From a virus: DNA of 64,000 nucleotides. The notes below the pieces were generated by a model that worked only from the letters and a program-made list of their open reading frames with translations, ran no database searches and was not told the origin of the DNA. Position 1 is the stretch's first letter; every line of letters begins with the position of its first letter. A program made the position numbers and the translations under genes. Positions 22,451-54,761 of this stretch are shown one piece after another. The stretch spans positions 96,001 to 160,000 of IMG/VR virus record IMGVR_UViG_3300027793_000055. One strand, written 5' to 3'.

Positions 22451-22485
22451 ATTGTACCTTTAGGTTTTCGAACACTAGTTATTTT

Positions 22486-23280
22486 ATGGTCACTAAACAC
22501 ATCTTAAAACTAGCTGTTCTTTTATTGTCTGTTTTATCATTAAACTGTACTTCACATACAAATTGTCTTGGTTTAGGTGATATTAAAGACTCAATAATAA
22601 ATATTACTCATACTCATAATAAGACAGTACTTCCTTACGATTCTTTTGTTAAGTTGATTAAAAACGTTTCAGATAAGAATGGAAATATTTTATTTTCTTC
22701 AGTTGCTTCAGGAGTCATACTTTCACATGGTAGTAACCATACAAAAATTTTAACTGCGCGACACTTCTGTGTTGGTTTAGAGAGTAAAGTAGATACAATT
22801 CCAGAAGAACTATTTCCCATAAAAGATGATACAACCATTATTGATGTAAAAAATGAAATACATAACATGTTGTTTTATGCATTTGATGATAAACACGATA
22901 TATGTGTTGTATTGACAAAAAAAATAGAGCAACCGGCAACTATAATATCACCGGTTGCTCCACTAAGAGGAGAAAAAGTTTTTAATATAGCTGCACCGCT
23001 TGGCATCTCAGATGGAAAAGCGGTGCTTTTATTTGAAGGATATTATGCTGGCGATTTTTATTCACCGCTAATTCGTTCAAACTCTTCCCTATATTCCATA
23101 CCCACAAAGAGCGGTAGTTCCGGTTCTGCAATCTTCAATGAACACGGAGAATTAATAGGTATTACCTATGCTGGTGTAAGTGAATTTGAAAATATCTGTA
23201 TTGCAGTACCCTGGAAAGATCTTAAAAGATTTATAGAATTTATAGAATCAGCACCGATACCTGATCTAGATATTGAATAA
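22486..23280 (+). CDS. Trypsin-like (S1) serine protease with signal peptide or lipobox
   Basis: TARHFC (His), DICVV (Asp), GSSGSA (Ser); hydrophobic N-terminus ending LSLNC; start at 22486 behind an ACTAGTTA motif. Confidence 0.88.
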   Translation: MVTKHILKLAVLLLSVLSLNCTSHTNCLGLGDIKDSIINITHTHNKTVLPYDSFVKLIKNVSDKNGNILFSSVASGVILSHGSNHTKILTARHFCVGLESKVDTIPEELFPIKDDTTIIDVKNEIHNMLFYAFDDKHDICVVLTKKIEQPATIISPVAPLRGEKVFNIAAPLGISDGKAVLLFEGYYAGDFYSPLIRSNSSLYSIPTKSGSSGSAIFNEHGELIGITYAGVSEFENICIAVPWKDLKRFIEFIESAPIPDLDIE

Positions 23281-27992: not shown

Positions 27993-28056
27993 AATATTTA
28001 ACGGAATTACAGAGATTCAAAATCGTAATTTCAATTCTTCTGAACTATTTACTGTT

Positions 28057-28710
28057 ATGAAGATGTATAACAGAACTTGTCTTGTTTGTAAATGTAATTT
28101 TCTTAGAAATTCAAGCGATGAAGCTAGCAGAAGAAATAAAAATATGATTTTGGAATTTTGTTCTAAAAACTGTTATAAGCAGTATCAACAAAATTTAAAA
28201 ACCAAAGTCAACTGTCGCAATTGTAATACTAGTTTTTTTAAAAAACAAAATCAAATTTTAAAAACAAAAAATAATTTTTGTTCCAAATCATGCGCGGCGA
28301 CTTTCAATAATAAGAATAAAGTCTTTGGTATTCGACGCTCTAAATTAGAAATGTATATAGAAGAACAATTAAGAAATGATTTTCCATCTTTAAAATTTGT
28401 TTTTAATTCAAAAGAATTGATACAATCAGAATTAGATATTTTTATACCTGAATTAAAATTAGCTTTTGAATTAAATGGAATATTTCATTATGAACCAATT
28501 TATGGTAATTCAAAACTTGATAAAATTCAAAATAACGATAAACAAAAAATTATCGCCTGTTTTGAACAAGGAATAGAACTTTGTATAATTGATACTTCAT
28601 CTTGTAAGTATTTAAATAATAACAATAAAATTAAATATTATAAAATTGTTAAGGACTTGGTCATTCAAAATATTGAACGTGCAGAAAAAACCAACGTGCA
28701 GGTGCCTTAA
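28057..28710 (+). mobile_element. Probable homing endonuclease: tandem CxxC...FCSKxC zinc fingers plus Vsr/DUF559-like nuclease domain
   Basis: SKLEMY...ELDIFIPELKLAFELNGIFHY; opposite strand to neighbours; ACTATTTA at 28044-28051. Confidence 0.75.
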
Positions 28711-43939: not shown

Positions 43940-44450
43940 TTTTACTTAACCGGTTAATTTTTTTCTCTATTTTTATGCATTTTAAAGCAGATAGCCTGCC
44001 TAATATAAACTGCAGATAATCTGCCTTGCATATGCTAACTCTACCACACTATCTATATAGCCCTGCAAAGCAACAGGATGCATTATAGGGGCTTATATCC
44101 TCCTAGGCCGATATACGGCTAACTTGTATGCCACAGCCCTTCCTATGCTGTTTAAATTAAGCATTCTATCTTAAGCTTACTAACCGGTTAATTTTTTATT
44201 TTTTATATAAGCCTATTATAGCCTATATTAGCCTTAATAAACTATTAAAACTATTAAATGCCTATATTGGTGCTTAGTGCCTAAAATTTTTCCAGAAAAT
44301 TTTCTGCCTACCCCTTTAACACAGTGTGTTAAAAAAATTTCCAAAAATTTGGCCGGTATTTCTTGCGCGTACTTAGCCGCCAGTATATACTATATCTACC
44401 ACTGGTACTTAGATTCCGGTATATAGGGGGGAGGGGGGGCACCTACCACC
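43940..44450. other. Terminus/packaging-site-like non-coding region
   Basis: About 10-bp-phased GCCTA repeats (44210-44290), AAAATTTT tracts, G6-A-G7 run at 44426-44439, TAACCGGTTA palindromes. Confidence 0.5.
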
Positions 44451-44493
44451 ATTTTTATATATTTATTTTATTGGCTTTGCTTATTTTTAAATA

Positions 44494-44521
44494 TAAAAAA
44501 ACCCACCTTGTTAGGGTGGGG
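44494..44521 (-). terminator. Intrinsic terminator ending leftward early transcription
   Basis: CCCACC(C)T-AACA-AGGTGGG then TTTTTT. Confidence 0.7.
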
Positions 44522-44583
44522 CATTATGCTATTGCTGATCTGCCGGCCAGATAGGCCGACAGACTATGTATCAATCCTAACAG

Positions 44584-44973
44584 TCAAGCGCGGACAACAG
44601 AGATAACACCATCGTCAAAGGTCACAGAAACCTTGTCACCCTTGACCAGACCAAGCAGACCAACGGGCAGACGAACAAAAGCGCCAGTCTCGCCGACTTC
44701 CTGCACAGTGTATTCACGGGTTGCGCCAACAGTAGCAGGCTTACGGCCGCGAACGCCACTGTTAACAGTAGAGAAAAGTTCGCTACGCAGAGCAGCCAGA
44801 GTATTGCCATGCTCGGTACCGTCAAACAGTGCAATAGCACCGTCAAGGGTCTTTGCGGTGAAGCCGGTACCATTGTGCAGATCACGAACCTTGCTAGCGC
44901 CGCCAGTGACAACAGCGAGGGCAATATCCTTGGCAGAAACAATAGCCTTGCGAGCGGTGTTGACGTTGGTCAT
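44584..44973 (-). CDS. Probable regulator: AT-hook-like RGRKP plus AbrB/MazE-like swapped hairpin
   Basis: RGRKPA...YTVQEVGETGAFVRLPVGLLGLVKGDKVSVTFDDGVISV; GC-rich codons. Confidence 0.65.
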   Translation of the reverse strand: MTNVNTARKAIVSAKDIALAVVTGGASKVRDLHNGTGFTAKTLDGAIALFDGTEHGNTLAALRSELFSTVNSGVRGRKPATVGATREYTVQEVGETGAFVRLPVGLLGLVKGDKVSVTFDDGVISVVRA

Positions 44974-45043: not shown

Positions 45044-45170
45044 GCCACCAGCACATTATAGCACGGGCTGAAAAGGAAGTCAAGCCCTCCGATGCTGCCG
45101 GCGTAAGTGCCTGAAAAGAGGGTTAATTTTTTTAGTGTATGTGATCTGGGAGAGATCACCGGGAGATCAC
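45044..45170 (-). promoter_or_regulatory. Early promoter module 1 (GTGATCT box, IHF-like site, TTGACT-N17-TATAAT)
   Basis: -10 at 45055-60, -35 at 45078-83, TAAGTGCCTGAAA at 45104, GTGATCT-N5-AGATCAC at 45141. Confidence 0.85.
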
Positions 45171-45276: not shown

Positions 45277-45303
45277 AACAAAAAACCGGCCTATAGGCCG
45301 GTT
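45277..45303 (-). terminator. Palindromic terminator
   Basis: AACCGGCCTATAGGCCGGTT followed by a T-run. Confidence 0.75.
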
Positions 45304-45334
45304 GGTATATACTTAATCTTCTGCAGTAGCTTGA

Positions 45335-45571
45335 TCAAAAAGCGGTGGAAAGCTCGCACACATCGACTTCCACAATAGCATCATGCTGCTTGACCATTGC
45401 AATATTGCCACACGGTGAAACGCGCATCACATGTCCACTGTGCTCTTTACGATAGATCTCGACAGTCCGGCCCAGCTTGATACGTTCAAGGGTCTGCCAG
45501 ATAACCGGCTTACCATCGAGATAGTGTGGGCGCGTTGTCATCATATAACCGGGCAGCTTAGGCTTATTCAT
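45335..45571 (-). CDS. Hypothetical small beta protein
   Basis: 78 aa, AGGAG SD. Confidence 0.6.
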   Translation of the reverse strand: MNKPKLPGYMMTTRPHYLDGKPVIWQTLERIKLGRTVEIYRKEHSGHVMRVSPCGNIAMVKQHDAIVEVDVCELSTAF

Positions 45572-45907: not shown

Positions 45908-46090
45908 TTAATATGGCAGATCATCATCACAGTATGGTGAAAGTGGTAGGATAAGTACGGTACCAGATGATACTTTTTCTTGACCTTGCTTTTTTCCATC
46001 GATATCATAGTGCACTTCTGAAAAGTGATGATCGGGGATATCATAATAACCATCCTGAACGTAGAGATATTCCATATCTTTAATCCTCAC
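45908..46090 (-). CDS. Hypothetical protein
   Basis: 60 aa, GAGG SD. Confidence 0.45.
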   Translation of the reverse strand: MRIKDMEYLYVQDGYYDIPDHHFSEVHYDIDGKKQGQEKVSSGTVLILPLSPYCDDDLPY

Positions 46091-46155
46091 CGGTTGAATA
46101 ATCTATATAGAAAACAGGCACCCACGCCCGTTCACCTTCTTTTTTATTCTTCCGG

Positions 46156-46368
46156 TTAACTGTTATTCTTTTGCAACCAGCATTCCACCAGTTCCCGTAA
46201 AGATACTGTGGCCAGAACATGTTCTGGTTCTACTGTATCAATCCTACCAGAATCAAAAACTTCACCCTCACCTTCCCAAGTAAGAAAAGAAACCTGCACA
46301 CCAGAAACTACATCCCAAGTCTCACCATCCGAAAGTGTAACAAAAGGGGTTGCGTCTGCCAGATTCAT
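46156..46368 (-). CDS. Hypothetical acidic protein
   Basis: 70 aa, GGAGG SD. Confidence 0.6.
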   Translation of the reverse strand: MNLADATPFVTLSDGETWDVVSGVQVSFLTWEGEGEVFDSGRIDTVEPEHVLATVSLRELVECWLQKNNS

Positions 46369-46417
46369 ATATCTACCTCCCTTAAGGGAAAAAGTGGCGA
46401 TTCTATATAGAAAGAAA

Positions 46418-46852
46418 CTAGCTAGCCATATTCACCAGATGGGCAATAACACGAGGATCATTAAGATCATGCTTTTCCAGCATATCTTCGATCTTATTCT
46501 GAAGTGCATAGAAGCCCATATCGTTTTTCTTTTTGGCATATGCCATAAGACCGGCAAGGTTAACGAGCAAACCATATTCCTGCAGGGAGTGAACACGATT
46601 AACTGTATCGTTAATCGTCTGGCACATATTCCTGCGAGCCATCTCTCTATCTTTAATAACCTGATCATCACGTTGCCGCTGACGAATAGCCTTCTCAGTC
46701 TTAGCAACAGAAACAATATAGTTAACCTGATCAGTCAGCATATCAAGATCACTGTCACTCAAACCAGCAACCTCCCCACGGCTCATGCTACCAATGGTAG
46801 TGATTGCATCCTGAAGCATTGCGAGGGTTTCAGCGGTGAGTGCGTTCGTCAT
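46418..46852 (-). CDS. Hypothetical helical protein, probably leaderless
   Basis: TATAAT-GCCCCT-ATG. Confidence 0.65.
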   Translation of the reverse strand: MTNALTAETLAMLQDAITTIGSMSRGEVAGLSDSDLDMLTDQVNYIVSVAKTEKAIRQRQRDDQVIKDREMARRNMCQTINDTVNRVHSLQEYGLLVNLAGLMAYAKKKNDMGFYALQNKIEDMLEKHDLNDPRVIAHLVNMAS

Positions 46853-46858
46853 AGGGGC

Positions 46859-46974
46859 ATTATAGCAGAACCGGCAGGAAAGTCAAGCACAGACTGCCCG
46901 CGATGCTAAACCCGCGATATATGGGGGCTTTTCATTTATTATACGTGATCTCTAATCGATCCCGGAGAGATCAC
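46859..46974 (-). promoter_or_regulatory. Early promoter module 3
   Basis: TTGACT-N16-TATAAT; degenerate IHF-like site at 46907; GTGATCT at 46945, AGATCAC at 46968. Confidence 0.8.
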
Positions 46975-46994
46975 TATCCTTTTTTATAAGGATC

Positions 46995-47225
46995 CTCTCC
47001 TATCCCAGCATGATTCCTGAACCGGCTTTTCTAGCCAATATTTATAAAATGGCTTCCGGATGCGGAGCACCCTTTTTTATAGCCTTTTATTCGACTTTCT
47101 CCCTATCTCTGAATGATTTAAAAATACACTTTTCTAGCCAATATCTATAAAACGGCTTCCTACTGCGGAACACCTTTTTCTATACCGTTTTATACGGTTT
47201 CTCCCCTATCCCATGATGATTCTAG
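46995..47225. repeat. Imperfect tandem repeat, period about 103 bp, about 2.2 copies
   Basis: TTTTCTAGCCAATAT.TATAAAA.GGCTTCC...TGCGGA.CACC.TTTTT at 47027 and 47130; CTCCC(C)TATC...ATGATT near 46995, 47098, 47200. Confidence 0.85.
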
Positions 47226-47373
47226 TAATCTAGCTGCAGCATATATTCTATATACAGGTTAAACCTATAGGGTACTAACAAGCTTGTATTTTAAAATATA
47301 AACTTTTTTATCTTTTTTTTATCTTTTTTCTCTTTTTCTATTCTTTTTCTAAAATGGTACACTATTTAATTTG

Positions 47374-47463
47374 TATTGATCTGTTTGTGGTATAGTGATT
47401 TAATACCCACCCTCCACCACCACTTTTTAACTTTCCCACCAGCTACGGCTGGTGTTTTTTTTT
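47374..47463 (+). ncRNA. Candidate C-rich small RNA
   Basis: ACTATTTA (47361) and TGTGGTATAGT extended -10 upstream; CCTCCACCACCAC single strand; CACCAGC-TACG-GCTGGTG-T9 terminator; no + strand ORF. Confidence 0.5.
47437..47463 (+). terminator. Intrinsic terminator with UNCG tetraloop
   Basis: CACCAGC-TACG-GCTGGTG-TTTTTTTTT. Confidence 0.85.
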
Positions 47464-47551
47464 ACTAGATTATATCTACCGTGTAGCCGGCTATTTACGG
47501 AAACAAAAAGGGAGAAGTGGACACTTTTTTAAGTGACTGTTTTGGGCAGGT

Positions 47552-47773
47552 TTAATCTTCTATTACATTCCCTTTATATAGGGTTAACTGATGATTGGAT
47601 ACATATACAGTATTACCAGACAATAGATCTAGAAAGGTGTACCCTTCTTTTCTGGAATCTTTTTTTAGGGTTTCTTTATAGCTTCCTGAAAAGAATAGTA
47701 AAAGTCTATCCTTTTTAGCGCCTGAGAAGATATGACCTTCTATAGAAACATGTTCATCTAGTAGGATTAACAT
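47552..47773 (-). CDS. Small protein, DLLSG paralog family
   Basis: MLILLD...FLDLLSGNTVYV. Confidence 0.6.
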   Translation of the reverse strand: MLILLDEHVSIEGHIFSGAKKDRLLLFFSGSYKETLKKDSRKEGYTFLDLLSGNTVYVSNHQLTLYKGNVIED

Positions 47774-47876
47774 ATTATATTCTTCTTGTCTCGGCAGGAT
47801 TATAGGATGGTGCTATAGTTAACCTGTCCTTCAATAAAGGCTAGTTTTATATCTTTGTGTCCTTATCTCAGGGATA

Positions 47877-48101
47877 CTATTGAAGGATGATACCACTTAG
47901 TGTTACCAGTTTAACTTGCCATGCATATAGGAAATATGATCTATCTGTTAAACTATTGATTATCCGATATACTGCAACTGTTTTTTGTATATTGTTTTCA
48001 ATATCTTCTTTGTCATTCTCTTTTATAAAAAAGATTGCTCTTTCTTGTGTTTTTAATGATAACTCACCTATTGAGACTGGTCCTTCAAGTAGAATAAACA
48101 T
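47877..48101 (-). CDS. Small protein, DLLSG paralog family
   Basis: MFILLE...IINSLTDRSYFL. Confidence 0.55.
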   Translation of the reverse strand: MFILLEGPVSIGELSLKTQERAIFFIKENDKEDIENNIQKTVAVYRIINSLTDRSYFLYAWQVKLVTLSGIILQ

Positions 48102-48126
48102 ATTTAATTCTTGTGTTCTCGGGAAC

Positions 48127-48348
48127 TTAAAATAGGGTACCTTTGGTAGCAAGAGATTCTAACACTATTACACCTAGATTAATCTCTTTTCCAGAAAGTA
48201 TATCTGTAAACTTGGTGCTATTAATCTTGTTTTTTGGATTTGTTATATAGTGATAGGATGCTGGATTATAAAGTATAACTCTTTCACCTTCTCTGCCATA
48301 AAGAATACCAGTTACACTTATATACATATCATTAACCAATAGATACAT
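48127..48348 (-). CDS. Small protein, DLLSG paralog family
   Basis: MYLLVN...FTDILSGKEINL. Confidence 0.6.
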   Translation of the reverse strand: MYLLVNDMYISVTGILYGREGERVILYNPASYHYITNPKNKINSTKFTDILSGKEINLGVIVLESLATKGTLF

Positions 48349-48363
48349 ATTTAACCTTGTTTT

Positions 48364-48687
48364 CTAGTCTAATATGGTACCATATTTGATTAGTTTTTCT
48401 AAACCATCTGTATATAGACCATAAGTCTTATCTATCAGTAGATCTGTTACTATATAGTAGTGATCTAGATTTGGATACTGTTCTAGATACTTGTATTTTT
48501 CATCCCTCAGATAAAATATTCTTCTTTGAAGTTTATAATCATCATCACTAAAAAGGTGTTGTATGCTAGCATAATCTGAATATGGCATATCTAGTAATTC
48601 AAGATTGTTTATTTCAATTATTATAAACATCCTTTTCTTATCTCGCTTACCACTCACCCTTAACAAAGATTCCAAAACCACCAACAT
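48364..48687 (-). CDS. Small protein, DLLSG paralog family
   Basis: MLVVLE...VTDLLIDKTYGL. Confidence 0.55.
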   Translation of the reverse strand: MLVVLESLLRVSGKRDKKRMFIIIEINNLELLDMPYSDYASIQHLFSDDDYKLQRRIFYLRDEKYKYLEQYPNLDHYYIVTDLLIDKTYGLYTDGLEKLIKYGTILD

Positions 48688-48829
48688 TTTCAGTTTCTTC
48701 AGTCAGAAGTTGCAAAGTATAAGCTGGACACATAGAAGAAAAATCAATACCAACAAAGTTTTCACTGATAATCTCTTTTTGCATCTCGATGATAGCCATA
48801 TTCTGTTCTTCACGCGACTTTGCAATCAT
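48647..48829 (-). CDS. Hypothetical protein
   Basis: 60 aa, GAGG SD. Confidence 0.5.
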   Translation of the reverse strand: MIAKSREEQNMAIIEMQKEIISENFVGIDFSSMCPAYTLQLLTEETENVGGFGIFVKGEW

Positions 48830-48900
48830 ATTTTATAACCTCTTGTTTGTTGTGTGTTTAAAATATAAGAAGCCCCATTAGATGGGGCACTCTTTATATA

Positions 48901-49104
48901 TCAAAGAACTGGAATATTTCTATTGAGATGGGTATAAATAGCACAATATGTATCAAGGTATGCATTCCAGTTTTGTGCATCCTGCACAAGCTGTGCATTT
49001 GTGCTATTTTCATCTTCTTGAAGATTTAAGAAAGTTTGACGCATATGCAGACAATCAAAACTATTAATCATAGAAATAACACCATTGATAACTTGCTTAT
49101 CCAT
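48901..49104 (-). CDS. Hypothetical protein
   Basis: 67 aa, AGGAG SD, downstream hairpin. Confidence 0.6.
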   Translation of the reverse strand: MDKQVINGVISMINSFDCLHMRQTFLNLQEDENSTNAQLVQDAQNWNAYLDTYCAIYTHLNRNIPVL

Positions 49105-50111: not shown

Positions 50112-50238
50112 GCCACCAGCACATTCTAACACGGATCGGGCAAAGCGTCAAGCACCATCACCGAGCGGGCCTAAGTGCCTGATCTTGCTCGTGTTTTTAT
50201 TTGTTTACAGTGATCTGCTTATCTGCTGGAGAGATCAG
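50112..50238 (-). promoter_or_regulatory. Early promoter module 4 (71-bp repeat copy A)
   Basis: TTGACG-N17-TAGAAT; TAAGTGCCTGATC; GTGATCT at 50210. Confidence 0.85.
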
Positions 50239-54644: not shown

Positions 54645-54761
54645 GCCACCAGCACATTCTAACACGGATCGGGCAAAGCGTCAAGCACCATCGCCGAGCG
54701 CACCTAAGTGCTTGAAACTACGGCAGTTTTATTTAGTTCAGGGTGATCTATCACAGATCAT
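54645..54761 (-). promoter_or_regulatory. Early promoter module 5 (71-bp repeat copy B)
   Basis: 48 bp identical to 50112-50159; TAAGTGCTTGAAA; GTGATCT-N5-AGATCAT at 54743. Confidence 0.85.

Follow-up and report, generated by a model that had tools for sequence, protein, structure and literature searches.

The genome considered here places nearly all of its coding capacity on the minus strand, yet within its early region an intergenic gap carries, on the plus strand, what resembles a complete promoter-terminator unit. The question raised by this locus is whether such a unit gives rise to a discrete RNA and, if so, what purpose an RNA facing against the direction of the phage genes could serve. 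The window analysed spans 64,000 nt, from base 96001 to base 160000 of a viral contig of 187,750 bp that is rated as complete, and features are given below in positions of this window. The large terminase shares 43% identity with that of Flavobacterium phage immuto and ~35% with those of T4-like cyanophages, and the genome also encodes portal, major head and baseplate proteins, GroEL, PhoH and a DNA polymerase; judged by these genes, the phage is a distant T4-like myovirus, uncultured and of fresh water. Its DNA was found in sequencing runs of 16 studies, and among the runs listed nearly all are freshwater metagenomes.

The early region extends from ~44.5 kb upward in the window. Its genes have strong Shine-Dalgarno (SD) sequences, and sigma-70 consensus promoters (TTGACT/G-N16-17-TGnTAnAAT) are located on the minus strand at 45083, 45812, 46886 and 50151, with a further one at ~54684 recognized via a repeat copy. 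The gap that houses the unit (Table 1) is flanked on one side by the small terminal gene of an early operon (47552-47773, minus strand) and on the other by the next early promoter (-35 at 46886, minus strand). A tandem 103-nt direct repeat occupies 46999-47204 (74% identical, with a partial third copy at 46974-47016) and lies directly upstream of the GATC-box module of this promoter; it could be an array of protein-binding sites. Contigs from a freshwater metatranscriptome match early genes at 44519-44935, 45296-45496 and 46266-46499 with 98-100% identity, from which it appears that this 45%-GC early cluster is represented in environmental RNA, DNA carry-over being possible.

Elements of the plus-strand unit

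The late motif, extended -10, C-rich tract and terminator that a first-pass annotation had named in this DNA are all found where it placed them and with the letters it gave (Table 1). The terminator consists of a stem-loop at 47437-47454, with five GC pairs in the stem, followed immediately by T9 at 47455-47463, that is, the GC-rich stem-loop and adjoining U-tract of a Rho-independent terminator. This hairpin rules the folding ensemble, reaching -13.4 kcal/mol with its flanks (z = -4.6) and a frequency of 0.97 in a 61-nt RNA, and a terminator of such quality arose in only two of 3000 shuffles of the 699-nt gap. It is the best intrinsic terminator on the plus strand of the 187.7-kb genome and the only clean intergenic one; the remaining terminator-like sites on that strand, all of which fall within coding sequence, were discarded in the genome scan. 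On the minus strand the hairpin precedes GGGAAAG, and the terminator is therefore specific to the plus strand.

The putative promoter was assessed through the distribution of the motif ACTANTTA. On the coding strand of the whole genome there are 37 copies, 28 of which touch non-coding DNA (~10% of the genome) and 24 of which are fully intergenic, against 3.1 expected. Many of these coding-strand sites come directly after terminators and ahead of structural or packaging genes, and related loci totalling 1.95 Mb showed a similar strand bias (282 sense versus 58 antisense). The plus strand of the genome has eight copies, three of them intergenic, and the two intergenic copies other than that at 47361 are located 4-5 nt ahead of the ATG of true plus strand genes, whose mRNAs are on account of this spacing probably leaderless and late. 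These are the only plus strand protein genes in the window: one encodes a trypsin-like peptidase (22486-23280, or 22474-23280 with the motif; Pfam, 4e-9) and the other an HNH endonuclease (28057-28710, or 28044-28710 with the motif; PHROG, 1e-10). The plus strand, described earlier as otherwise silent, is thus not entirely so. Given its bias towards intergenic DNA and towards one strand, together with the two plus strand genes, we consider that ACTANTTA is a promoter-type motif. At 47361 the 8-mer stands in non-coding DNA on the strand that would be transcribed, the activity of this particular copy being predicted. About four intergenic plus strand copies are expected by chance and three were seen, so ACTATTTA at 47361 could be fortuitous.

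A second candidate start is provided by TGTGGTATAGT at 47386-47396, which reads as TGn plus TATAGT at 47388-47396. No usable -35 was found for this extended -10, and because the pattern class occurs 89 times on the plus strand of the genome, the element taken alone is weak evidence of a promoter.

Between these putative promoters and the terminator lies the C-rich tract, the sole non-coding C-rich window on the plus strand in 187.7 kb. The predicted probability that its CCUCC is unpaired is 1.00 for an RNA of 60 nt and 0.78 for one of 89 nt. The additional hairpin proposed earlier at 47387-47410 can indeed be folded, but it is weak (-3.2 kcal/mol) and differs from the minimum-energy fold.

The absence of an ORF, as first reported, holds in the sense that none is plausible: a 30-aa frame with a TTG start is present at 47376-47468, but was rejected as a gene owing to its non-AUG start, its stop beyond the terminator and U-tract, and the lack of any family match. 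Rfam covariance models gave nothing at gathering scores, the best match under relaxed conditions being anti-hemB with 14.9 bits against a threshold of 49.5. Among the contigs of the freshwater metatranscriptome mentioned above none covers 47361-47463, an absence that carries no weight since RNAs of such size are usually lost from such libraries, and at 47303-47348 the same data yielded only low-complexity T-rich matches with 4-5 mismatches. A discrete RNA of ~90 nt, possibly accompanied by one of ~60 nt, is likely since ACTANTTA is of promoter type and the other intergenic plus strand copies head true genes; overall, we regard a discrete plus strand RNA ending at 47463 as reasonably probable.

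Table 1. Features of the intergenic gap and of the plus-strand unit within it (window positions)
Feature	Position	Strand	Remarks
ORF-free gap, 699 nt	46853..47551	.	Houses the promoter-terminator unit; fourth largest gap of the genome
Late-type promoter motif ACTATTTA	47361..47368	+	Predicted start ~47373-47375
Predicted non-coding RNA, ~90 nt	47374..47463	+	From the late motif; shorter ~60-nt form from 47403
Host-type extended -10 TGGTATAGT (TGG TATAGT)	47388..47396	+	Predicted start ~47403
C-rich tract CCCACCCUCCACCACCAC	47406..47423	+	Largely unpaired (predicted); CCUCC at 47411-47415
Complement of C-rich tract GGTGGTGGAGGGTGGG	47406..47421	-	Five G-runs, 1-nt loops; predicted G-quadruplex motif
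U/A-rich linker	47424..47436	+	Precedes the terminator hairpin; unpaired in every fold
Intrinsic terminator (7-bp stem CACCAGC/GCUGGUG, UACG loop, U9 tail)	47437..47463	+	Fold and shuffles

Possible roles of the unit

In its outline, the earlier proposal of a stand-alone, ORF-free plus strand unit with a late-type motif, a strong terminator and an exposed C-rich stretch is backed by the sequence statistics. We tentatively favour the view, with a confidence that stops a little short of even, that the locus is a lineage-specific, stand-alone small-RNA transcription unit which faces against the gene direction of the phage and has an Hfq-type or OOP-like build. The promoter-like motif, the strong and specific terminator, the C-rich tract (unique among non-coding DNA and predicted to be unpaired) and the lack of a plausible ORF all speak for such a unit; against it speak the lack of a transcript contig and of relatives possessing the unit, a motif count near that expected by chance, the missing -35 and the fact that no coding sequence is overlapped.

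With the elements and their rarity observed, we infer transcription, RNA ends, timing and function along the following lines. RNA polymerase with phage late specificity would start ~6 nt after ACTATTTA, near 47374, as is suggested by analogy with the two leaderless plus strand genes, and a second start near 47403, by host polymerase at the extended -10, may be possible. With termination in the U9 tract at 47463, the two starts would yield non-coding RNAs of ~90 and ~60 nt. The late RNA, or the act of its synthesis, may then engage, through pairing or collision, early transcripts that read through into the gap, whereby expression downstream would be uncoupled or shut off; pairing in trans with G-rich sites may also be possible. 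An OOP-like mechanism is the most economical of these, because the only partner that is certain from the sequence is the perfectly complementary minus strand read-through RNA of the upstream early operon.

The main rival explanation, which we think unlikely, is that the terminator serves as an insulator only, stopping stray plus strand transcription (including any that arises from a chance late motif) from entering the tRNA-bearing early operon, the RNA being a by-product without a target. The plus strand of 47296-47436 contains only 10 G in 141 nt, and such a G-poor, C/U-rich tract would also suit the loading of Rho. The near-chance number of intergenic plus strand late motifs, the failure of the unit to be conserved in relatives and a target scan without specificity (see below) all fit this reading, as does the antisense orientation of 9% of the phage terminators that have been mapped (PMC10914365). 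On the other hand, a fortuitous promoter could be removed more simply by one base substitution in the 8-mer than by the evolution of a perfect terminator 70 nt away, and intrinsic termination does not need a unique C-rich tract. Nor is there another notable plus strand promoter upstream whose transcription would have to be stopped. A 233-aa plus strand frame at 46208-46909 was considered as an upstream gene and rejected as a shadow ORF antisense to a conserved 144-aa early gene on the minus strand: when each is compared with its counterpart in the closest relative (L015), the minus strand protein shows 42% identity and the plus strand frame 23%. This frame is also open in L015 (L015:12803-13312, minus strand), though poorly conserved.

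Alternatively, the minus strand or the DNA itself may be what is meaningful and the plus strand unit incidental, an explanation that we judge improbable. The hairpin with the G-run cluster, the purine-rich tract and the 103-nt repeats would then serve 3'-end formation or processing in the upstream operon, belong to a region of R-loop or origin type, or be the decayed remnant of a copied early-promoter module. Consistent with this, the genome has no second non-coding G-run cluster besides GGTGGTGGAGGGTGGG, folding that allows for G-quadruplexes is far more stable (-31.5 versus -14.7 kcal/mol), there is a 15/19 match to the -10/start region GTTAGAATGTGCTGGTGG of the early-promoter family, and the gap is long and includes the tandem 103-nt repeats. 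However, T9 directly after the stem makes sense for plus strand transcription only, and neither a minus strand promoter nor a U-tract was found at the site. In addition, neither strand of the 103-nt repeats folds significantly as RNA, GC and AT skew display no switch that would mark a replication origin, and relatives have no counterpart of the site.

The mechanism put forward in the first-pass annotation was a late riboregulator whose CCUCC seed mimics the anti-SD of 16S rRNA, thereby silencing SD-led host and early mRNAs while sparing leaderless late ones. The predicted exposure of CCUCC, the strong SDs of the phage genes, which imply that the host ribosome reads them, and the failure to find a RegB homologue in the phage genome are in keeping with it, but we consider it very unlikely. 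The supposition that late mRNAs are leaderless proved wrong for most of them. At 16 of the 28 sense intergenic ACTANTTA sites the following gene, in some cases a structural gene, is SD-led (a leader of at least 18 nt with GGAG, GAGG or AGGA), and at two of the 28 an ATG lies within 8 nt; an anti-SD RNA made late would consequently hit the phage's own late mRNAs. When the C-rich region was scanned with RNAduplex against 243 phage start regions, pairing did not surpass that of composition-matched shuffles (mean duplex energy -7.9 versus -8.1 kcal/mol; 58 versus 65.6 sites at or below -10 kcal/mol), so that no preference for SDs over shuffles is apparent. A stoichiometric block of all SDs by one small RNA would, moreover, need very high abundance, and the unit is not conserved.

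The same annotation noted that the CCACCAGC arm is complementary to the 5' ends of three early transcripts. That arm, however, is the 5' arm of the terminator stem and hence sequestered. The complementary octamer GCTGGTGG does occur near the three promoters, 3-10 nt after the -10 (in two of the three cases as copies of one 71-bp repeat), but early transcription is expected to start 6-7 nt after the -10, inside GCUGGUGG, which leaves only GGUGG in the RNA.

A narrower version of this idea would have a T4-like phage devoid of RegB make a late small RNA that imitates the anti-SD end of 16S rRNA and occludes a subset of GGAGG-type ribosome-binding sites on host or early mRNAs. We hold this to be most improbable; if true, an RNA would here take the part of RegB, and T4-type lytic phages would have their first trans-acting regulatory RNA. 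In T4, the RegB endoribonuclease cuts GGAG in early SDs and so inactivates early mRNAs (PMC3014915). RegB is a protein, whereas the unit described here is a predicted RNA, and our search of the phage genome revealed no RegB homologue.

Conservation and comparison with known systems

The closest relative, L015, is syntenic with the phage and 79% identical to it in the AAA ATPase, with 42-60% identity in the small early proteins. It lacks the gap 46853-47551 as well as the genes at 47552-48687, its early promoter module directly follows the preceding gene, and its 78-kb record shows no DNA similarity to the unit. No homologue or analogue of the unit was found in ~160 related loci collected by an AAA ATPase search, all of which apart from L015 are at most 64% identical, and the few antisense-strand terminators in these loci all lack a late-type motif within 110 nt upstream. 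A blastn search with 46000-49000 gave no match among 50,697 phage records; likewise, no match was obtained for the neighbouring 144-aa protein in viral and metagenome contigs or for exact DNA patterns (terminator, promoter part), and the 373-aa neighbour protein gave matches at its N-terminus only. On this evidence the unit is, as far as the sequences compared reveal, lineage-specific. Strain-level data show almost no variation. Position 47404/47405, between the -10 and the C-rich tract, is exactly where assembled contigs stop or start in two freshwater metagenomes that are independent of each other. In one metagenome run (X15) 47405-47647 is uncovered while both flanks are covered, which could reflect a structural variant among strains or low depth.

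The small RNA that we tentatively favour has several known systems with which to be compared. OOP of phage lambda is a 77-nt antisense RNA that reaches into the 3' end of the cII reading frame. Both OOP and the predicted RNA are short, each has a promoter and a strong intrinsic terminator to itself, and each runs against the surrounding operon and is perfectly complementary to the opposite transcript. In contrast to OOP, the predicted RNA overlaps only untranslated RNA, its end at 47463 lying 88 nt beyond the stop of the nearest minus strand gene (which ends at 47552), so that the coding 3' end of the opposite gene is not reached; its promoter, furthermore, would be of the phage late type.

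Hfq-dependent trans-acting small RNAs of Proteobacteria include the prophage small RNA DicF. Like them, the unit has its predicted unpaired seed close to or at the 5' end, then an A/U-rich segment, a terminator hairpin (here a GC stem with a UNCG-type loop) and at least seven terminal U residues; in architecture it presents the entire layout of such RNAs as found in enterobacteria, promoter included. It differs from them in that its seed is conserved nowhere (L015 and the ~160 loci having been compared) and in that no target stands out above background among the phage start regions. RsaE/RoxS and RNAIII likewise possess C-rich unpaired motifs, which can pair with G-rich ribosome-binding sites. 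These RNAs carry several UCCC or CCCC motifs in hairpin loops, conserved across species, and have defined regulons, whereas the C-rich stretch of the unit is single, linear and not conserved, and no set of targets was enriched for it.

The regulatory RNAs of virulent phages are poorly known. According to a 2010 review, no regulatory RNA of T4 had been functionally characterized, and RNAs C and D of that phage are small RNAs of unknown role (PMC3014915). Late antisense RNAs have been documented in phage AR9 (PMC5312081), and antisense terminators occur in virulent phages (PMC10914365). In the essentially one-directional genome of Pseudomonas phage LUZ19, P001 is an antisense phage-specific promoter whose proposed role is to restrict read-through into the early genes during middle and late infection (PMC10914365). 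Unlike the unit, whose RNA is predicted to be cut short at 60-90 nt, LUZ19 P001 gives a long transcript and is conserved across its genus. If transcribed, the unit would offer a compact case of a small RNA made late and against the gene direction, and this in a phage abundant in fresh water. With one lineage, no identified target and an uncultured host its value is limited, and we offer it as a hypothesis rather than a new principle.

Additional sequence features of the phage genome

The octamer GCTGGTGG, which is the E. coli Chi octamer, has 15 copies on the coding strand of the genome and three on the other strand, against an estimated ~0.4 expected from base composition. Most copies correspond to Ala-Gly-Gly codons. 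Those at early-promoter starts are located at 45045-45052, 50113-50120 and 54646-54653 (all minus strand), and one copy forms the 3' arm of the hairpin at 47436-47443 (minus strand).

A non-coding element at 44279-44459 (minus strand) is conserved on the sense strand in related phage contigs, at least 20 of them, from both marine and fresh waters. It is composed, in order, of a C7-T-C6 tract, CCGGRAT-NTA-NGT-NCC, a variable stretch and an end of the form GCTAAGGTAC..TTCACGATACCGC.GAAAAATTTNGAGATTTAA, the last unit of which is often doubled. RNAalifold gave no consensus fold for this element, which may therefore work at the level of DNA, for instance as a packaging site, a special promoter or an origin.

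Finally, the late motif ahead of the large terminase gene is contained in a hairpin, CCCAACTATTTAAAATAGTTGGG, which is followed by T6 (L005:14990-15020; genome ~55013, minus strand), from which it follows that terminator and promoter would overlap upstream of this gene.
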